Shown here: positions 3,509 to 23,621 of the stretch, in pieces | How the letters are laid out: each line of letters begins with the position of its first letter | How positions within the stretch are numbered: position 1 is the stretch's first letter | From: a virus | Length of the DNA: 45,440 bases | IMG/VR virus record: IMGVR_UViG_3300028610_001044 | Direction: 5' to 3' (one strand) | Program-made: the position numbers and the translations under genes | Notes under the pieces: model-generated | The model's input: the letters and a program-made list of their open reading frames with translations, nothing else | Told to the model about the DNA's origin: nothing | Database searches by the model: none

Positions 3509-3840
3509 AGGGAAACGCTCAAATCAAAAGAACTACATTGGGGTATGAAGACCACGGAATACTCACCTGTTGGTTGTACCTAGAACAAAGCGGGAGCGGT
3601 CAGGGGTTTGGTGGGTATCGGTTAGATGCACCAAAGGGTAATAGTATTTATACGGATATGTGGGTGAAGCGAATATTAGAAGTTGTCGGGGTGAGAGAGT
3701 GGGAGTCTTTACCGGGTAAGTATGTGCGGGTTGAGGGTGAGGAGTTCGGCAAGATTGAGGGGATAGGCAACATTCTTGAAGATAAGTGGTTTTACCCCGC
3801 AAAAGAACTGAAAGAGAAAGAAGAAAACGATGAGAGTTAA
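3505..3840 (+). CDS. Hypothetical protein
   Basis: 111-aa ORF, ATGA-coupled. Confidence 0.7.
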   Translation: MKGNAQIKRTTLGYEDHGILTCWLYLEQSGSGQGFGGYRLDAPKGNSIYTDMWVKRILEVVGVREWESLPGKYVRVEGEEFGKIEGIGNILEDKWFYPAKELKEKEENDES

Positions 3841-3909
3841 ATCACAAACGAAGTTTGTGGACAACAATAAATACCACGCCACCCCAACAACAGTAGACGG
3901 CATAAGGTT

Positions 3910-4215
3910 ATGAATGAAAAAGACATACAAAAACAGATAGTAGACTACCTGCGCCTAAGGGGTTGGTTTGTGGCTATCACTTCCCAAAAAGGAATGAGCT
4001 TTGCCACGCCAGGATTGCCGGACTTGATAGCAGTTAAAAGCATTAAGTGGCCAGATGACCCCGATGATGAGGTGCGTACTCTTTGGATAGAGGTAAAAGG
4101 CCCAAGAGGCACACACCGTCCAGCGCAAATAGATTTCCAAGAGGGGCTAGAAGCCGCAGGAGGGGAATACCTACTAGCCAACTCACTAGACGTTGTAATG
4201 GAGTATTTAAAGTAA
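3910..4215 (+). CDS. VRR-NUC (PD-(D/E)xK) nuclease
   Basis: IVDYLRLRGW...GLPDLIAV...WIEVKGPRG...Q matches the VRR-NUC D...ExK core layout. Confidence 0.8.
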   Translation: MNEKDIQKQIVDYLRLRGWFVAITSQKGMSFATPGLPDLIAVKSIKWPDDPDDEVRTLWIEVKGPRGTHRPAQIDFQEGLEAAGGEYLLANSLDVVMEYLK

Positions 4216-4217
4216 TG

Positions 4218-4234
4218 GTCAAACGTAGTTTGAC
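4218..4234. repeat. Palindrome family member P1: GTCAAAC-GTA-GTTTGAC
   Basis: Perfect 7+7 inverted repeat with a 3-nt spacer, 17 nt upstream of ATG 4252. It shares 23 of 26 nt with P4 (41664..41689, reverse complement). Confidence 0.9.
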
Positions 4235-4251
4235 GACCAAAAGGAGGACAG

Positions 4252-4578
4252 ATGCTTAACAAACAAATAGAACGGATAAAGAACAACGGACACATATTTT
4301 GGACGTTCTGGGGGATATGCGCTCTTGGCTGGTTAGTCTATGCGTGGTCAGTAATCCTCCCCTTGGCGGCTGAGTTGCAATCTGAACCAACGGTTCAGGA
4401 CAACCTCTCAATCATTGAAGCTATCACTACAGACGAAGTAAAGTGGAAAACAATAACAGTAGAGACATTCAATCCAAAAGAAGCATCAGACGACTTCACC
4501 GACAGTGGATTAACCAAGAAAGTAACAACAGAGTTTTATTTCGATCAGAGAGTCCCGGCTAAAAAGGAGAGAAAATGA
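4252..4578 (+). CDS. Membrane protein (1 TM)
   Basis: AAGGAGGACAG precedes the ATG. TM segment FWTFWGICALGWLVYAWSVILPL. Confidence 0.7.
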   Translation: MLNKQIERIKNNGHIFWTFWGICALGWLVYAWSVILPLAAELQSEPTVQDNLSIIEAITTDEVKWKTITVETFNPKEASDDFTDSGLTKKVTTEFYFDQRVPAKKERK

Positions 4579-4715
4579 GGAAAATAAGTAGCGACGAACA
4601 CCTCGCCAAGCTTTCCCTTGTGCGAGAACGAATAGGCGTTGATGTGTGGGCCTCGATGACTAATGATGAGCGAGAGCGGGCGCTTGAGAAGATTAAGCCA
4701 AAGGAGAAGAAATGA
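4575..4715 (+). CDS. Hypothetical 46-aa protein
   Basis: ATGA overlaps at both ends and AAGGAGAG lies upstream. Manual translation shows no internal stop. Confidence 0.45.
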   Translation: MRKISSDEHLAKLSLVRERIGVDVWASMTNDERERALEKIKPKEKK

Positions 4716-5035
4716 GCAGGATTAAAGAGCTGGCGAGAGAGATACGGATGAATGCTTGTAGACACCGTGACCGAAACGGCGATAGGTGGGACTATTACGA
4801 GGTTGAACGCACCAACAAACTTTTAGACCTTATCGACGGAGCAGAGGAACACCAGTTAGCCCCGCTGTGTTCTAGCGGGCGAGAAGGAATGTGGTTATTC
4901 TTCCCAGACCCACAACCTACGCTAAAGGATGCTGCACAAGCGGTTGTGGAGGAGAGGATGGCGGCGCTAAGAAGTAATAGCATATTGGACAAAAGGATAG
5001 ACAACCTAGCCGCAGCACTAAAGAGAGAGGATTAA
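4712..5035 (+). CDS. Hypothetical protein
   Basis: 107-aa ORF with AAGGAGAAGAA upstream. Confidence 0.7.
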   Translation: MSRIKELAREIRMNACRHRDRNGDRWDYYEVERTNKLLDLIDGAEEHQLAPLCSSGREGMWLFFPDPQPTLKDAAQAVVEERMAALRSNSILDKRIDNLAAALKRED

Positions 5036-5850: not shown

Positions 5851-6261
5851 TTACCCCTCCCTTACATGCTTTGAATGCAGAGCAGCAAGTGTTCCTGTTT
5901 CTGTTTCGTCAGGAGAGTGGATATTGTTGATGCGTACCATAATCACGTTATCCTCTGGCCATATCTGGTAATAATATTCTATGTCTTCGTGCAGTGGGCC
6001 GGAATCAATATAAACATCGCCGGGGCCATCTTTGTTAGCCAACACATAGAACGCCGCTAGATCGTACATGTCTGGTTCGTTTACTCGGTAGCCATATCCT
6101 CCACTCGCATCATACCCTTTGTTTGCGAGGTCACGCATGGCCTTGATATTCTTCATGCGCCAGGACGGGTAGCCGTCACTGTGATGATACAGGCGGGCTA
6201 CAAATGGTGTGCCTCCGTCCGGCTTGTGCTCGTAAAAGTCTATGTTGCTTCTCGTACTCAT
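5851..6261 (-). CDS. Hypothetical protein
   Basis: 136-aa ORF with GGGAGGTA upstream on the minus strand. Confidence 0.75.
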   Translation of the reverse strand: MSTRSNIDFYEHKPDGGTPFVARLYHHSDGYPSWRMKNIKAMRDLANKGYDASGGYGYRVNEPDMYDLAAFYVLANKDGPGDVYIDSGPLHEDIEYYYQIWPEDNVIMVRINNIHSPDETETGTLAALHSKHVREG

Positions 6262-6285
6262 GTTAAATACCTCCCAGTATTTGGT

Positions 6286-6459
6286 TTAATTAAGTTCCCG
6301 TCGTTCGATCATGCGGGTTGATGTGTTCGGCTCGTTCTCGCGGTAGTCCTTGAGATACCCTCTTGCTTCAAAGTAGGTTTCTGCGGCGGTCAAATCCTCC
6401 CAACCATACCCGTAGTTCCCTTGTATCACATGCAGATATGTATATTTGTTCTTTTTCAT
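6286..6459 (-). CDS. Hypothetical 57-aa protein (YLHVIQGNYGYGWEDL motif)
   Basis: ATG 6459 is preferred over GTG 6468. It is coupled to the stop of the upstream mini-ORF (TAGAATG). Confidence 0.7.
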   Translation of the reverse strand: MKKNKYTYLHVIQGNYGYGWEDLTAAETYFEARGYLKDYRENEPNTSTRMIERRELN

Positions 6460-6460
6460 T

Positions 6461-6586
6461 CTATACACCCCCTAAGATTTGGTTAACAGTCAGCATTTTT
6501 GACTGGACTAAACTAACGGCAGAGCTGGCTATTAACAGGCCAATAACAACAAAGTAGATGATTAGTGCTCCTCTAACGATAGTCAT
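6461..6586 (-). CDS. 41-aa membrane mini-protein
   Basis: Manual translation gives MTIVRGALIIYFVVIGLLIASSAVSLV.... GGAGTG lies 10 nt upstream. Confidence 0.5.
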   Translation of the reverse strand: MTIVRGALIIYFVVIGLLIASSAVSLVQSKMLTVNQILGGV

Positions 6587-6588
6587 TG

Positions 6589-6705
6589 TTATTCACACTC
6601 CAAGACTCTAGCGTCCTCGCCACAGTTCGCAGCGTAGGCGTCTGCCACCAGTTGATCGTCGGTTACATAGAGAAGAACCCCGTTAGCGATTACTTCGTAC
6701 CACAT
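6589..6705 (-). CDS. 38-aa acidic mini-protein
   Basis: GGGAGGTAAAG precedes the ATG. It is the first gene of the minus-strand island. Confidence 0.45.
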   Translation of the reverse strand: MWYEVIANGVLLYVTDDQLVADAYAANCGEDARVLECE

Positions 6706-6901
6706 CTTTACCTCCCGTTGGTTGCCTACCCCATAGTGTACACATGGTAGGAGTAGAAGTCAATAAAACAAGGTTTAAGGGGTTGAGCAGGGAGAACACC
6801 ACAGAGGGAGAGGGCAGTCGCAACCACGGGTTGCGGGGTAACCCTTAAATATGGTATACAGCGTAGGTAGTATTTACACTTATCCCCAGGAGACAAAGCC
6901 C

Positions 6902-7444
6902 ATGACAGTCAAGGACAAGGTCGCAGTCTATGACAAGGCAGAAGAGATAGAAAAGAAGTATTGCGGGGCCAAAACCAAGAGCGGGAAGACCTGTGAAAGA
7001 CCTCAAGGATGGGGGACATGGCATCCGGGTCAAGGGAAATGCAAGTTACATGGTGGGGCAAGTCCGTCAGGGCCACGGAGTATGTATGTACAGCATGACC
7101 AGGACTTATTAGAGAGAGTTAAGGAATTAAAGGAAGACCCAAACCTAACCAGCATCCCTGAACAGATAGCCTTATCAATAGCTATGATGGAAAGAGCAGT
7201 TAATAACCTAGAGAGTGATGAGAGCAGTAAGTTAGAACAGGCTAAATCGGTGGGTGTAATAAGCACCAACCTAGCAAAGATGATCGAGACCAACCACAAG
7301 ATACAGGTAGGACACTATCTTTCACCTGACCACGTACAAGACCAGATAAGGAAAGCAGCAGGCCACATACAGCGATCATGTAAAGGGTGTGACAAGCTGG
7401 AGACACTAGCCCAAGAGCTACAGGCCATGACCTCTCAAGAGTAG
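6902..7444 (+). CDS. Hypothetical protein with Cys cluster and HGG motif (CKLHGGASPSGP) plus helical C-terminus
   Basis: ATG 6902 lies 9 nt after AGGAG; the alternative start at 6851 has no SD. The motif resembles HGGxSTG-type proteins of unknown function. Confidence 0.65.
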   Translation: MTVKDKVAVYDKAEEIEKKYCGAKTKSGKTCERPQGWGTWHPGQGKCKLHGGASPSGPRSMYVQHDQDLLERVKELKEDPNLTSIPEQIALSIAMMERAVNNLESDESSKLEQAKSVGVISTNLAKMIETNHKIQVGHYLSPDHVQDQIRKAAGHIQRSCKGCDKLETLAQELQAMTSQE

Positions 7445-19064: not shown

Positions 19065-19553
19065 ATGGCGGTAGCCGATTTCGGTCGCCTGACCGCAATA
19101 ACGCGGTCAAATATTCTTCCCAACGTATCTGATGCAATCGTACAGAACTCGCCAGGACTTAATCGTTTCTTGAACAAAGCGAAACGAGAAGACGGCGGCA
19201 CGACACTCAATAAGATCGTAAGGTTCAAGAACAGTACTCAGGGCGGCGGTTACGCTGGCCTTGAAACGCTTTCTGCGGCCCTACAGACGACTCGTACCCA
19301 AGCCCAGTTTGATTGGCGGCAGGTATACGAGCCGATTGCGGTGTCTAACATTGAGGTTGCAAAGAACGGTGGGATTCAAAAGGTCGAGGACTTAGTTGCC
19401 CTCGACATGGAGGACGCTAAATTGTCCTTGGAAGAAAAGTTCGGTGGCTATCTTTACAGTGATGGTTCAGGGGACTCTAACAAAGTTCCCGAAGGACTTG
19501 TAAATGTAGCGGATAAAAAGTTGTCCCTATTGGGCTTACGACTTGCGGCTTAA
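19065..19553 (+). CDS. Major capsid protein, N-terminal part (exon 1 plus read-through into the insertion; proposed exon end 19514)
   Basis: Strong SD (TAGGAGGAATTACT). It lies after the scaffold gene. The ORF stops 39 nt into the HNH-bearing insertion, and its C-terminal partner lies at 20512..21051. Confidence 0.7.
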   Translation: MAVADFGRLTAITRSNILPNVSDAIVQNSPGLNRFLNKAKREDGGTTLNKIVRFKNSTQGGGYAGLETLSAALQTTRTQAQFDWRQVYEPIAVSNIEVAKNGGIQKVEDLVALDMEDAKLSLEEKFGGYLYSDGSGDSNKVPEGLVNVADKKLSLLGLRLAA

Positions 19554-20535
19554 GGCAAATTGCTGGTAATATGTTTTTATTGTGGCAAAACGCCTGACTA
19601 GAAAAGACGAGGCATTTAAGCATAGCGCTGCTTACATCGAGTGGCGACACAATGTTTATGCCCGAGATGGCTGGGCATGTAAGATATGTAGTCATAAAGG
19701 TCAGGACATAGAGGCGCATCACATATATCCATTTCGTGACTATCCTGAGTTAAGGGTAGATGTTGGAAATGGAATTACGCTATGTGTGGCCTGTCACAGA
19801 ACATTATTTGGCAAAGAACGACGAGTCGCAGAAGAATTGTTAGGCTTAATAGACAATGGCGTGAATTCGGTGGAACTCCTACCAGGTAGTGCTGGGGACA
19901 ATACCGAGCCAAGCCAGGTTGGAAACGACTTGGAAGGTGTAACGACTAGAGGTCGAGTCTTCGACATAGAAAGGTTCAGGAAAAAAGCAGTTCGTTGTAA
20001 GGGTTGCGGGAAAACCATACATAGATATTTTTATGAATGGGAGAAAGCTAAGAAAGGGTTTGTCTGTAGTCCCGCTTGTAAGTCCAAGTGGTTTAGGTCA
20101 AAGGACTTCAAGGGGAAGAACAGTGGGAACTACAAATCAAGAGAAAGACAGAAATGCCTTTATTGTGGTAAGTTCACAAGCACGCCCTCAGATCGCAACC
20201 GAGACAAGAAGTATTGCAACAATTCATGTCAGCTCAAATACGAGTTAAAGCATGGATTAAGGGTGAACGAGATTACTAAGAAAGCTGGTATGACGCATTG
20301 CCAGAAAGGACACCCGTTCGATGAGAAAAATACCTATAACACAGTAGATCGTTATGGGAAAAAACATCGTCAGTGCAAGGCTTGTAAGAAACAACGAGAG
20401 GCTAAATACCGAGCCAAGAAACGTAAAGACAGTAACACCTCCACGAGCGCGCTACCCGTAAAGGGATGATATAGTCTGGACAACGTAGTAATACGTTGAA
20501 GTAGAGGATAAAGAGCCTACTACGGTAACAGTACG
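19515..20535 (+). mobile_element. Putative self-splicing (group I-like) intron carrying an HNH homing endonuclease; boundaries are proposed, not proven
   Basis: It interrupts the capsid reading frame. U19514 can pair with G19523 in a GGAU/GUCC P1-like helix, and G20535 precedes the in-frame resumption. A CAACGTA-GTAA-TACGTTG GNRA hairpin lies at 20481..20498. Confidence 0.5.
19582..20469 (+). CDS. HNH homing endonuclease with C-terminal multi-CxxC DNA-binding region
   Basis: EWRHNVYARDGWACKICSH...IEAHHIYPF...GNGITLCVACHRTLF, followed by five CxxC/CxxxC pairs. Confidence 0.85.
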   Translation: MAKRLTRKDEAFKHSAAYIEWRHNVYARDGWACKICSHKGQDIEAHHIYPFRDYPELRVDVGNGITLCVACHRTLFGKERRVAEELLGLIDNGVNSVELLPGSAGDNTEPSQVGNDLEGVTTRGRVFDIERFRKKAVRCKGCGKTIHRYFYEWEKAKKGFVCSPACKSKWFRSKDFKGKNSGNYKSRERQKCLYCGKFTSTPSDRNRDKKYCNNSCQLKYELKHGLRVNEITKKAGMTHCQKGHPFDEKNTYNTVDRYGKKHRQCKACKKQREAKYRAKKRKDSNTSTSALPVKG

Positions 20536-20553
20536 GACGGTACAAATGACAAT

Positions 20554-21051
20554 GTGTACGGTGGGATTAACCGTACCAACAACACTTGGTGGAAGGGAAG
20601 TTACGTTGCCTCTGTAGGCGCGTTTGCGGTATCCATTCTCTCAACTCGTCTTGACGATATTGAGGACAATGGTAAAGCGGTAGACCTCCACCTTACAACT
20701 CTGGCTATGTGGACAGCTTACGAGCAGACACTTCACCCACAGGCGAGATTTGAGTTTAGTTCAGGTGGCTTCCCGAAAGCGGATGGCGGCTTTGATAAGT
20801 TGACCTACCGTGGAGCGGAAGTTCTGAAAGACCCAAGATGTACGGCTGGTTTCTGGTATATGCTCAATATGAACACCATTGATTATTACTACCTCAACCA
20901 CCCGACATTTAAGACCGACAACAGGGGCTTTACTTTATGGCCGCTGCATGAACCGACTTCCCAGGACGGCAAGATTGGATTCTTGCTCTGGTATGGCGCG
21001 TTCATCACTACTAATCCTCGCCACAATGGGGTTATTAGGGGGTTGACGTAA
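20554..21051 (+). CDS. Major capsid protein, C-terminal part (frame open from 20512; proposed exon start 20536)
   Basis: No SD lies before the first possible start (GTG 20554). The sequence YGGINRTNNTWWKG... continues a capsid-like protein, and the decoration genes follow immediately. Confidence 0.7.
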   Translation: MYGGINRTNNTWWKGSYVASVGAFAVSILSTRLDDIEDNGKAVDLHLTTLAMWTAYEQTLHPQARFEFSSGGFPKADGGFDKLTYRGAEVLKDPRCTAGFWYMLNMNTIDYYYLNHPTFKTDNRGFTLWPLHEPTSQDGKIGFLLWYGAFITTNPRHNGVIRGLT

Positions 21052-21052
21052 A

Positions 21053-21511
21053 ATGGCAGAAGCAGATATTTTTGATGAAAACAAAGGCCGGTTTACTGAT
21101 TCGGCTGGTAGTGAGTTCGTCAACGCTCGCGCTGGAAGCGGGGGATTGGCAGCAGGGGACGTTGTTACTTTTAATTCAACCCTCTCTACAGCCTCTATCT
21201 ACCAAGTCTTGAATACGTCTACAACCGCCGAAGACCAAAGCGTAGTTGGCGTGTGTACGGAGACTATTGCCAGCGGTTCCTATGGCAAGATTCAAACTTT
21301 CGGCCACAACACTACGGTCAAGATTGATGGAACTACGACCTCTGTAGCCATTGGCGACAACATTTGTCAAAGCGTGACAGCCGCGAAAGCCCAGAAGTTT
21401 GAAGCAATCACGGTTAGCCCAGCTAATGGTGGGGCAAGACTCGGCATTTGTATGGCAACGGTAGCGAGTGGTAGCGATACCACGTTCGCCTGTTTCATTG
21501 ACCCAAGGTAA
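21053..21511 (+). CDS. Head decoration-like protein (DUF2190-like), paralog 1
   Basis: The pattern GDVV.F....VVGVC.E.IASG..G.IQ..G...VK.DG....AIGD resembles DUF2190 decoration proteins. It sits directly after the capsid gene. Confidence 0.55.
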   Translation: MAEADIFDENKGRFTDSAGSEFVNARAGSGGLAAGDVVTFNSTLSTASIYQVLNTSTTAEDQSVVGVCTETIASGSYGKIQTFGHNTTVKIDGTTTSVAIGDNICQSVTAAKAQKFEAITVSPANGGARLGICMATVASGSDTTFACFIDPR

Positions 21512-21520
21512 GGGGGAGCT

Positions 21521-22165
21521 ATGGCTAGAGGAACAAGAGTTACGGCCTGCCCTCTTTACAAATTGGGACTTGATGATGACGGAACCGCAGACGTAACTGG
21601 AGCCAGGACTGTTTCTGGCATTCAGACGTTTACCGGAGCCAACACCCATGCAGGGATTGAAACCCATGCAGGAGCGGAAACGCACGCTGGCGACGAAAGC
21701 CACACCGGCAAGGAAACCTTTGTGGAGTATTCACAGGGGGCCGCAGCCGGTGGGGATGGGTACAAGGAGTTCAAGACAGCTATGGCCTCTGGTGGGGCTT
21801 TGGCTAATGGAGATTTGGTCATGTTTGACCCGACCCTCTCCACAGCGACTTCATATCGTGTCTTGGCTTCCTCGACCACGGCTCAAGATGCCAGAATCAT
21901 AGGTGTTGCTACGGAAACAATCGCTAGTGCCGCCTTTGGTGAGATTCAGATTTACGGTCATCACACGGCAGTTAAGGTTGATGGTACAACTACTTCGGTA
22001 GCTATCGGCGATCAGATTGCTGGTGGGATAGTGGCGAAAAAGGCTTCTAAGCTGGAGTACGCCAATCGGTCGGCTACGCTAGGCGGGATTAGTCTAGGAA
22101 CGTGCATGGCGACAGTTGCCAGCGGTTCTGACACTACCTTTGCCTGCTTCATCGACCCCAGGTAA
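21521..22165 (+). CDS. Head decoration-like protein, paralog 2, with N-terminal hexapeptide repeats
   Basis: About 60 percent identical to paralog 1 over the last ~120 aa, with an identical final 20 aa. Hexapeptide repeats NTHAGI/ETHAGA/ETHAGD/ESHTGK lie at 21626..21721. Confidence 0.55.
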   Translation: MARGTRVTACPLYKLGLDDDGTADVTGARTVSGIQTFTGANTHAGIETHAGAETHAGDESHTGKETFVEYSQGAAAGGDGYKEFKTAMASGGALANGDLVMFDPTLSTATSYRVLASSTTAQDARIIGVATETIASAAFGEIQIYGHHTAVKVDGTTTSVAIGDQIAGGIVAKKASKLEYANRSATLGGISLGTCMATVASGSDTTFACFIDPR

Positions 22166-22238: not shown

Positions 22239-23621
22239 ATGATTGATATTATTATGGTTAATTACAATTCAGACGATGAACTCAAGAAGTTAATACCAAC
22301 GCTTGAGAAGCACACCAAGGACTACAGACTCACGATAGTAGACAACGCATCCAAGGACACAACATACCTCAAGACACTGGACGACAAAGCCCAAGTAATC
22401 TACAACGATGAGAACCTTGGGTATGCGGCTGGTGTCAATATAGGCATGAGAGCCACAGAGAACCCGTATGCGGTGTTTGTGAACCCTGACTGTAGGGTAA
22501 CAGTCGGATGGCTTGAGGGGCTTGTAGGAGTCCTTAAAAGTGACGCTAAGATAGCGGCTACTGGCCCCATGCTTTACGACGACAAGAACTCTGAGTATGC
22601 GGGCAACCCAACCTATGTGCCGTTGTCATTGACTGTGGACATGGAAGTTAATTGGGTGTCGGGTGCAGTCTTTTGTGTAAATCGCAAAGCCTGGGAAGAA
22701 ATCGGAGAGTTCCGAGAAGAATACTTCTTCATGTGGGAGGAAACAGACTGGTGTCAGATAGCCGTCAATAAGGGCTATAAGATACGTCAAGCCGCAGATT
22801 CTATAGTGATTCATGCAGGAGGCGAGAGCTGTAAGGGTGAGACAGCGTTCTTCGTAAAGCATTACCAGTTCGGGAAGAACCTGTTTTACAAGAGACACCC
22901 GAAGTCAGGCAAAAAACGTGTTCTGATCGCAACACCCAGTTATGGTGATGTAAAAGCGCAGTACCACATCAACTACATGAACCTGTTGGTGCGGTTAATG
23001 AAACTACAGTTTACAGAGGAAGAATATGAGTTCTTCCCTTTAACCATCTACAACCAGTTTGTCTATGACGCTAGAAACAAGGCGGTAGAGACAGCACAGA
23101 GCGCCGGTTGTGACTACATCTTCTTTATTGATGCAGACATGATTGTGCCCCCCGATACATTTGAGCGATTGGTGGCGCACGACAAGGAGTGTGTTGGGTG
23201 TCTTGCCTTTAAGAGAGCCGCCCCATATTTGCCTCTAGTGTATCGACTTGAAGAAACAACTGAGGATGGGCGCTATAGGTTCGGTATCCGTGATGACTGG
23301 CCTAAAAACGAACTGACTAAAGTAGATGCAATCGGAGGGGCGTGTTTCCTGGTCAAGACTTCGGTGTTTGATAAATTAGAAAGACCGTATTTCTACATCA
23401 AAGAAAACACTGGTGAGGACATATGGTTTTCAATACTCATGATAGAAAAAGAGATTCCAATGTACGTGGATACAGGAGCGCCGGTCGGACACCTGGGAGA
23501 GATAATCGTAGGTGAAGATACCTACCGAGGCTATAAAGCACAGATGGAAGCACATAGAGCGAGCATATTAGGAGAGAGAGAAGAAGACAAGGAAAGCTTA
23601 ATAGGAAAGGAAGTTAAATGA
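22239..23621 (+). CDS. Two-domain family-2 (GT-A) glycosyltransferase
   Basis: Domain 1: IMVNYNS...TIVDNASKDTT...NLGYAAGVN...FVNPDC...WEETDWC. Domain 2: VLIATPSYG...IFFIDADMIV (DxD). Confidence 0.8.
   Translation: MIDIIMVNYNSDDELKKLIPTLEKHTKDYRLTIVDNASKDTTYLKTLDDKAQVIYNDENLGYAAGVNIGMRATENPYAVFVNPDCRVTVGWLEGLVGVLKSDAKIAATGPMLYDDKNSEYAGNPTYVPLSLTVDMEVNWVSGAVFCVNRKAWEEIGEFREEYFFMWEETDWCQIAVNKGYKIRQAADSIVIHAGGESCKGETAFFVKHYQFGKNLFYKRHPKSGKKRVLIATPSYGDVKAQYHINYMNLLVRLMKLQFTEEEYEFFPLTIYNQFVYDARNKAVETAQSAGCDYIFFIDADMIVPPDTFERLVAHDKECVGCLAFKRAAPYLPLVYRLEETTEDGRYRFGIRDDWPKNELTKVDAIGGACFLVKTSVFDKLERPYFYIKENTGEDIWFSILMIEKEIPMYVDTGAPVGHLGEIIVGEDTYRGYKAQMEAHRASILGEREEDKESLIGKEVK

Follow-up and report, generated by a model that had tools for sequence, protein, structure and literature searches.

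Group I introns with endonucleases have been described in phage capsid genes, in mycobacteriophage LittleE, where splicing was shown, and in lactococcal phage Tuc2009, which is cited with it (PMC3706429). The extension of endonuclease open reading frames (ORFs) into the ribozyme core is known as 'core creep' (Edgell et al. 2011, PMC3073962; Hausner et al. 2014, PMC3984707, Fig. 2b), the tabulated overlaps being of 9-81 nucleotides (nt) at one end of the ORF (PMC3073962, PMC3984707); the ORF of I-PfoP3I spans P6a to P7.2 of its intron (PMC3428280). The DNA analysed here (IMG/VR virus record IMGVR_UViG_3300028610_001044; 45,440 nt, the whole of which is called the window) seems to represent the genome of an uncultivated phage, in full or for the most part. 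It very probably contains a single major capsid gene interrupted at 19515-20535 by a mobile group I intron that carries its own HNH endonuclease gene. A capsid gene split in this way is an ordinary finding as such; what is unusual is how ORF and ribozyme are arranged. As in LittleE and Tuc2009, an intron with a homing endonuclease splits the major capsid gene, the exon ending in U and the intron in G; the capsid family, the intron sequence and the endonuclease are unrelated to those of the window, however, and in LittleE the nuclease gene is LAGLIDADG-related and on the opposite strand, with no overlap of ORF and core described.

The intron of the window resembles cases of core creep in that a single piece of RNA is constrained at the protein and at the RNA level alike, and in that ribosomes would disrupt its folding, so that expression needs control. 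It differs in that the translated part of the core amounts to about 146 nt, divided between a 5' block from P2' to P7.1 and a second block from P7.1' to J8/7. The 5' block is in mid-ORF, and simple stop-codon loss at one end fails to explain a domain on each side. In mitochondrial group I introns with exon-fused in-frame ORFs, translation yields a longer precursor that includes the core helices and from which the core part is removed by proteolysis. That core RNA is translated is therefore nothing new in itself; there as here core helices are translated, but the ORF of the window starts inside the intron, in another frame than the exon, and no processing is implied. A core in mid-ORF with a folded domain on each side, conserved throughout a family, was not found described; the reviews tabulate overlaps at one end of the ORF.

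The interrupted capsid gene

At the position of the capsid gene, an ORF begins with ATG 19065, preceded 7 nt upstream by the Shine-Dalgarno (SD) sequence AGGAGG, and ends with a stop codon at 19551-19553. An HNH ORF of 295 amino acids (aa) follows in another frame, and the capsid frame is open again from 20512 to 21051, with neither SD nor ATG ahead of the conserved residues. All three had been recognized, with correct coordinates, in an initial annotation of the window, which proposed that the two halves make up one major capsid protein. This proposal was borne out; the lengths of 162 and 165 aa given for the halves are those of mechanically called ORFs, and the true exons encode 150 and 171 aa. 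The features of the predicted gene are as follows (HSP, high-scoring segment pair).

19065-19514, plus strand: major capsid protein exon 1, 150 codons, ending in U19514 (tblastn HSP of homologue P0001 residues 1-150)
19515-20535, plus strand: predicted group I intron, 1,021 nt, with terminal G20535 as omega-G (gap-free junction, partial Rfam matches, comparative model)
19582-20469, plus strand: putative HNH homing-endonuclease ORF, 295 aa, GTG start, stop UGA at 20467-20469 in J8/7, in a different frame from exon 1
20536-21051, plus strand: major capsid protein exon 2, 171 codons and stop (tblastn HSP of P0001 residues 151-321 at 20536-21048)

In tblastn searches with intron-less capsid proteins, the alignment broke exactly between residues 150 and 151, which correspond to window positions 19514 and 20536. 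The joined 321-aa protein aligned without gaps, at 83% identity, with intron-less P0001 (321 aa), its best match in a large protein collection, and the alignment with intron-less homologues that the initial annotation had recommended (ten capsid homologues) left the halves contiguous, with no gap at the junction. Because the tblastn alignment breaks at exactly this point and the joined protein aligns gap-free, the split is more than chance. The gene for P0001, in contig L004, is uninterrupted and stands in the same gene order as in the window. The joined protein was also matched to PHROG phrog_9953, major head protein (E 1.9e-49, residues 10-317), and as one aligned piece to the annotated major capsid genes of several phages. 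The head module of the window consists, in order, of an SU10-type portal gene, a scaffold-like gene, the capsid gene and two cement-like genes. By full-length homology and by its position in this module, the predicted product of the interrupted gene is a phage major capsid protein, presumably of the HK97-like type.

Few junctions yield this protein, and only that of U19514 with G20536, the one put forward in the initial annotation, combines an exon ending in U with an intron ending in G. Since the homologue alignment fixes this junction, the intron occupies 19515-20535 (1,021 nt) and ends, as had been anticipated, in omega-G (G20535). At the junction the predicted product reads ...PEGLVNVAD/DGTNDNVYGG... 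(a slash marks the junction or insertion point here and below) and the RNA GCGGAU/GACGGU; the predicted spliced sequence is ...GUAGCGGAU joined to GACGGUACA..., with a predicted junction peptide of ...GLVNVADDGTNDNVYGGINR. The intron-less site in L004 is GGTCAACGCGGTAGAC/GACGGAACAAACGA.

Two other explanations of the split bear on this evidence. If the gene were fractured, a free-standing HNH gene would have split it, and the halves would be made separately and would assemble non-covalently, with no splicing. Exon 1 does have its own SD and in-frame stop codon (19551-19553), a GTG is present at 20554 in the frame of exon 2, and Rfam makes no intron call at its gathering threshold; however, no SD precedes this GTG, and a start there would lose the conserved DGTNDNVYGG (encoded at 20536-20565). 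The junction moreover gives the exact length of the intron-less homologues, and the insertion has a complete group I structure backed by covariation, with a guide sequence that follows the exon at three sites (next section), so that a fractured gene is barely credible. The probability of an intein, of a group II intron or of a translational bypass element is negligible. Inteins too interrupt conserved sites such as this one in the capsid gene, but after 12 codons of the insertion the exon 1 frame meets a stop, and the HNH ORF uses a different frame; Rfam gave no group II match even at E values up to 10, nor was any domain V or reverse transcriptase found, and the ORF encodes instead an HNH and zinc-finger protein; and 1,021 nt far exceeds any known bypass. 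All three are excluded by the sequence itself.

Structure and class of the intron

The intron was compared with phage IA-type introns that carry HNH ORFs, namely the td intron of Vibrio phage pVa5, the intron of I-PfoP3I (cyanophage Pf-WMP3 DNA polymerase gene), that of I-HmuI (SPO1) and those of Twort-like staphylococcal phages. The core sequences J3/4-P4, P4'-P6, J6/7-P7 and J8/7-P7' are the same as those of the window, and the U-G pair at the 5' splice site, omega-G, P10, an extra pairing after P7 and an HNH ORF are common to both. The predicted RNA elements, and what is translated from them, are as follows.

19509-19528, plus strand: P1 and guide sequence, GCGGAU (19509-19514) with GUCCCU (19523-19528); core GGAU with GUCC; pair U19514-G19523
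19515-19522, plus strand: P1 loop, the last 3 nt of which, GUU (19520-19522), form P10 with GAC (20536-20538)
19529-19538, plus strand: P2 5' strand, AUUGGGCUUA, partner 19841-19850; 8 of 10 pairs change on both sides
19539-19840, plus strand: P2 loop, 302 nt, containing a -10-like motif, GTG 19582 as ORF start, and the coding sequence of the HNH catalytic domain (aa 1-86)
19841-19953, plus strand: 5' block of the core (P2', J2/3, P3, J3/4, P4, P5, P6, J6/7, P7, P7.1), translated as endonuclease aa 87-124
19841-19850, 19857-19863, 19864-19866 and 19867-19872, plus strand: P2', P3, J3/4 and P4 of this block
19877-19898, 19902-19907 and 19908-19938, plus strand: P5/P5a, P4' and P6/P6a (GAAA loop at 19922-19925) of this block
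19939-19943, 19944-19948 and 19949-19953, plus strand: J6/7, P7 and P7.1 of this block
19954-20436, plus strand: P7.1 loop, 483 nt, encoding the Cys-rich zinc-finger (DNA-binding) modules, aa 125-285
20437-20441, 20448-20454, 20455-20465 and 20466-20471, plus strand: P7.1', P3', P8 (loop GUAAA) and J8/7, first part of the 3' block of the core; 20437-20469 (P7.1', P3', P8, start of J8/7) encodes the last ten residues and the stop UGA (20467-20469)
20472-20476, 20481-20498, 20501-20523 and 20524-20535, plus strand: P7', P9 (GUAA loop), P9.1 and the tail ending in omega-G, last part of the 3' block

The initial annotation had noted that a group I core would have to overlap the ORF, and P2', P3-P7, P7.1, P3' and P8 do lie within the HNH reading frame; the GNRA-capped hairpin that it reported in the 3' tail (CAACGUA-GUAA-UACGUUG, 20481-20498) is P9. 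Its recommended Rfam search gave a mixed outcome, in that two colinear Intron_gpI pieces and no group II match were found, the pieces scoring 17.5 and 16.9 bits, below the gathering threshold of 50. In this permissive scan, model positions 57-150 (J3/4, P4, P5, P6, J6/7, P7) matched 19864-19950 and positions 220-251 (J8/7, P7', P9) matched 20465-20496, colinear with the structural model. The 5' piece of the core is 75-80% identical (blastn) to DNA of Vibrio phage pVa5 and of Twort-like staphylococcal phages, at loci that Rfam scores at 99 bits (pVa5 td intron) and 80 bits (Twort-like phage intron). The pVa5 match lies within td, a gene annotated as a join of two pieces with an HNH gene enclosed, and the match in Staphylococcus phage JS1 adjoins an annotated 'intron encoded nuclease' gene.

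A structural alignment of nine introns (that of the window and eight metagenome relatives) was built by hand and padded with N, and its fields were verified against the real sequences; MAFFT retained the register of this alignment. Automatic MAFFT alignments of whole and trimmed introns (A4, A5), in which P1, P2 and P5 were out of register, were replaced by it. The model helices (P1, P10, P2, P3, P4, P5/5a, P6/6a, P7, P8, P9, P9.1) are paired in 94.7% of cells across the nine introns, compared with 36-43% in a control in which the 3' partners were slid by 1-3 columns. Of 74 model pairs, 41 change on both sides, a number reached in none of 500 shuffles, and the covariation score is 0.493 against 0.189 ± 0.015 in the shuffles, again with none of the 500 reaching the value of the model. 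Covariation was seen in P3, P8, P9, P9.1 and P7.1: the strands of P3 are 590 nt apart and three of its pairs change on both sides, as do two in P8 and 7 of 8 in P6a, P4 and P7 being invariant. P7.1 (19949-19953 with 20437-20441), directly after P7, is paired in all nine introns, with four of its five pairs compensatory. The sequences AAU-UCGGUG, GUAAC-GACUA and GAUGAUA-UAGUC are invariant within the family and fit the Rfam consensus in the two partial alignments. The topology of the core is complete, with a P4-P6 domain, a P3-P8 domain, the P3/P7 pseudoknot and the helices in the correct order, as read from a hand-made alignment that leans to the model. An earlier version of the model, with a long-range P8 (UUGCGGG at about 20005 with CCCGUAA, 20456-20462) and an insertion in P8, was dropped, as P3' at 20448-20454, a local P8 hairpin and P7.1 co-vary.

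The P1 helix proposed in the initial annotation, GGAU (19511-19514) with GUCC (19523-19526), was confirmed by the comparison; all nine introns have its U-G pair at the 5' splice site and a G as last base. The guide sequence tracks the exon: GGAU pairs with GUCC at the common insertion site, GGGU with GCCC in L018, and GACU with GGUC in L016, which is the behaviour expected of a group I P1 helix. P1 and P10 are each 88.9% paired across the nine sequences, and P10 of L018 has a compensatory change (UAG/UUA versus GAU/AUU). On this comparative evidence the insertion is assigned to the group I introns, and is predicted to belong to the phage IA type, P7 being followed by a P7.1 helix.

Several observations weigh against this assignment or against activity of the intron. 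At the gathering threshold (50 bits, RF00028), Rfam found no match in the whole window, and all members of the intron family score below it (at most 38.7 bits against 50); the 302- and 483-nt loops that interrupt the core are the likely cause. Among ORF-less relatives, Rfam found nothing in L183 and L187 at E values up to 0.01, and these provide no bridge to the curated family. The hand alignment (A6) was fitted to the model, so that pair counts favour the model, chiefly in the hairpins P5, P9 and P9.1; P1, P2, P3, P7.1 and P10, which are strings of fixed length beside invariant anchors, are less exposed to this bias. P1 of the window has just four Watson-Crick or wobble core pairs, and P10 just three pairs, imperfect in three of the nine sequences. 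No P7.2 was identified, with only 6 nt (CACGAG) between P7.1' and P3', and the IA2 subgroup is accordingly not established. Splicing is inferred from structure and comparison.

In the pre-mRNA, the guide sequence GUUGUCC (19520-19526) would align both exons, through P1 (with GGAU) and P10 (with GAC, 20536-20538), and P3 and P7 would make the usual pseudoknotted core. An exogenous guanosine would then attack after U19514, and the freed exon 1 would attack after omega-G20535, the product being an mRNA for the 321-aa capsid protein (...VNVAD/DGTND...).

Whether such splicing would occur, and unaided, can be weighed against two alternatives. A decayed remnant that no longer splices, in a contig from a defective or mis-assembled phage, could account for the 1-nt insertion in the P8 loop of the window (GUAAA, versus GAAA in the eight relatives), for the short P1 and for a window-specific segment of low model confidence in the zinc-finger region; such decay is highly unlikely, since the core helices of the window are all intact (P2 10/10, P3 7/7, P4 6/6, P7 5/5 and P7.1 5/5 pairs), the ORF is full-length with all catalytic and Cys residues kept, and the capsid gene is essential and the surrounding module intact. 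Splicing might also depend on a protein, with the translated core/endonuclease acting as a maturase or with a host factor taking part, in place of autonomous self-splicing. The 302- and 483-nt loops could hinder folding of the core, and certain group I introns of organelles require their own encoded proteins (literature cited in PMC3073962); on the other side, phage group I introns studied so far self-splice in vitro (PMC3984707), and the strong, conserved closing helices P2 and P7.1 should hold the loops outside the core. Protein-dependent splicing is on balance unlikely, and autonomous self-splicing of the group I intron remains the preferred reading.

The endonuclease reading frame and its possible expression

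The product of the HNH ORF matches Pfam HNH (PF01844) at aa 33-74, with 26.1 bits against a cut-off of 21.4, several PHROG HNH families (down to E 1e-14) and PDB 5h0m (E 6e-7); no I-HmuI chain was among its PDB matches. The sequence of its HNH domain resembles those of the phage GVE2 HNH protein and of the HNH domain of IscB. In the protein alignment D29, H46, H47, N63 and H72 are invariant, and the N-termini of homologues align to the GTG start at 19582. The zinc-finger part has invariant Cys pairs (alignment A2) and matches to MYM/FCS zinc fingers in PDB. Only 67 nt of intron sequence lie before the ORF and 66 nt after it.

The stretch NGVNSV..L..DNTEPS..GN..EGVTTR, which is translated P3-P7, is the most conserved of the protein, above most of the catalytic domain, and its 'GN' is GGAAAC, the GAAA tetraloop of P6a with its closing pair. 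In an AlphaFold model, which is shallow (10 sequences) and has a mean predicted local distance difference test score (pLDDT) of 65, aa 94-127 are below 50 and have no secondary structure, as against scores of 72-91 for the HNH domain and 71-84 for the zinc-finger part (aa 128-230). At third codon positions, mean pairwise identity reaches 0.67 for the 5' core block and 0.79 for the 3' tail, versus 0.39 and 0.44 for the loops, the latter values being as expected for coding sequence; differences in the length of the protein linker coincide with differences in the length of the P5 hairpin. The conservation of this stretch, its low pLDDT, the third-position identity and the P5-linked length variation together show that the translated core is constrained by RNA and not by protein, and aa 87-124 are predicted to act as a disordered linker between the HNH and zinc-finger parts. 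The most conserved stretch of the protein would thus be one predicted to be disordered, with third-position conservation that tracks RNA helices and not protein, and the approximately 146 nt concerned would provide a clean natural example of catalytic RNA and protein at once.

The arrangement differs from that of the other phage IA-type HNH introns in that the core is flanked by functional protein domains, the HNH domain of the P2 loop and the zinc fingers of the P7.1 loop, and is thereby internal to the ORF and not overlapped by one of its ends, and in that the host gene encodes a capsid protein. In the pVa5 td intron too, the ORF of the HNH protein runs across the core, in the frame seen in the window family (...VNSGEP...NPEPS...DDIV). 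The annotated HNH gene of pVa5 (NC_049379, L005:2012-2668) overlaps the entire Rfam-scored core at 2438-2678, its last ~70 residues being translated core. When 1.84 billion representative proteins were searched with aa 86-230, about 23 clusters carried the translated core and zinc fingers, and the other approximately 70 matches zinc fingers only.

Phage-like contigs (viral and metagenome loci L103-L342) contain the core signature UCGGUG...GGACAAUACCGA with GUAACGACUA at 78 or more distinct places, and the intron subclass is therefore common in uncultivated phages. The 18-base core pattern gave many chance matches in ordinary genes, so that only the 78 cores that also have the P7 motif were kept; most of these are compact cores without an ORF, in which 50-70 nt separate P7 from J8/7. 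Among the 78, only the present family is read through by an ORF, the remaining cores being ORF-less or having an ORF that lies entirely after P7 and has a normal ribosome-binding site. In the window, the P8 loop has an extra U (GUAAA in the 20455-20469 region; the eight relatives all have GAAA), which brings the J8/7 UGA into frame; the ORF of several relatives continues through J8/7 and P7' as ...ER(D/E)DIV.

The HNH ORF has no SD sequence. An extended -10-like motif, TGGTAATAT, is present at 19563-19571, in the P2 loop upstream of the start codon. Of 11 intron HNH ORFs, which represent three independent intron types, 9 have a TGnTAnnnT that ends 6-10 nt ahead of their start codon; these are seven of the nine family members (in the window, L007, L012, L014, L016, L018 and L021) together with the second intron of L012 and the intron of L001, in both of which it ends exactly 6 nt before the start. 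At the same place it precedes none of 30 ordinary genes of the window, and its base rate is 0.0008 per nt. The ORFs of related introns that lie wholly after P7 have normal SD sequences and are without TGnTAnnnT. These observations hint at a separate, nearly leaderless endonuclease mRNA transcribed from an intron-internal extended -10 element.

Ribosomes that translate the ORF would unfold the core, which requires translation to be kept separate from splicing. In the full pre-mRNA, the ORF, being without an SD, would go untranslated, and the RNA would splice with no ribosomes crossing the core. The endonuclease would come from a separate short-leader or leaderless transcript that starts at the intron-internal element (19563-19571); this transcript, without P1 and the 5' strand of P2, could not splice and could be translated free of competition. 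Against such a transcript are a sigma-70 scan, which found no promoter at 19563 and no -35 element; the start codon of the window, a GUG 10 nt from the -10-like hexamer, which makes a poor leaderless start; the lack of the motif in two of the 11 introns; and the shared ancestry of the motif-bearing family members, which are not independent observations. We suggest, as a tentative possibility that may well prove wrong, that in at least nine introns the ribozyme core serves as the interdomain linker of its own two-lobed endonuclease, the conflict being solved by two physically different RNAs; as part of the same tentative reading, the layout with a promoter at the start codon would recur in two unrelated capsid-gene introns of this phage group. 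Both core creep and the separation of translation from ribozyme folding become directly testable in this family.

Related introns and genome context

Homologues of the HNH protein are 45-56% identical to it, and all those on readable contigs except P0020 are encoded inside a divided capsid gene, between its two halves, with the gene order unchanged. The capsid genes of L007, L011, L012, L014, L021 and L025 are just 30-40% identical to those of the clade of the window, and yet have the intron at the same codon boundary, D/D(G or S)T. In L018 a family intron is present 17 nt upstream of the common site, and in L016 (which encodes P0020) one is present in a different capsid-like gene, at ...ISPT/DTPF..., whereas the allele of L004, with 83% capsid protein identity to the window, is intron-less. 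In L001 (contig ERZ27251120 k141_2266430), a close relative of the window, the capsid gene is split 6 nt further downstream (DDG/TND; L001:3250-3991) by a different group I intron, scored by Rfam at 44.5 bits over the full model (3652-3961), with an HNH protein of 197 aa in which the zinc fingers come first and HNH last, the 3' half of its gene overlapping the core.

Three different insertions (at D/DGT, in L018 and in L001) are thus found within approximately 25 nt of the capsid motif GL..AVDDGT.N.YGGI.R. Presence and absence of the intron and the clustering of insertions are the usual signature of homing at a conserved target, by which the endonuclease would cut or nick intron-less capsid alleles near D/DGT, and repair from an intron-bearing allele would copy the intron in. 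With at least three different intron insertions within ~25 nt, the GL..AVDDGT motif is useful for the study of target choice by homing endonucleases.

Further insertions were observed in capsid genes of this group. A second one in L012 (3947-4771; also in L013), at capsid residues 208/209, has a second HNH ORF (4085-4621) and a J8/7-like motif, GAAGATATAGTC, at 4731-4742, and probably represents a further group I intron of this gene. In L014 (467-916), L015 (1745-2194) and L018 (201-620), the 5' part of the capsid gene contains or is closely preceded by LAGLIDADG-type ORFs, and the capsid HSP begins only at residues 23-49, which suggests a third intron or an intein.

In the window and in all related contigs, gene callers report the capsid gene as two hypothetical proteins and an HNH gene. 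Because gene callers split the gene and Rfam misses the intron, capsid-based phage classification and counts of phage introns miss such cases. No close relative of the phage was found when 20 kb of the window were compared by megablast with 50,697 deposited phage records.

The cement-like genes after the capsid gene (21053-21511 and 21521-22165) are adjacent paralogues, with the shared sequence ...TLSTA..Y.VL..STTA.D....GV.TETIAS...G.IQ..GH.T.VK.DGTTTSVAIGD... and the C-terminus CMATVASGSDTTFACFIDPR; the first has a weak Phage_cement_2 match and the second a short internal repeat, THAGIETHAGAETHAGDESHTG. The head module also includes a 460-aa ORF (22239-23621), the L001 counterpart of which (5994-7382) has matches to Pfam glycosyltransferase family 2, an unusual neighbour of capsid and cement genes.

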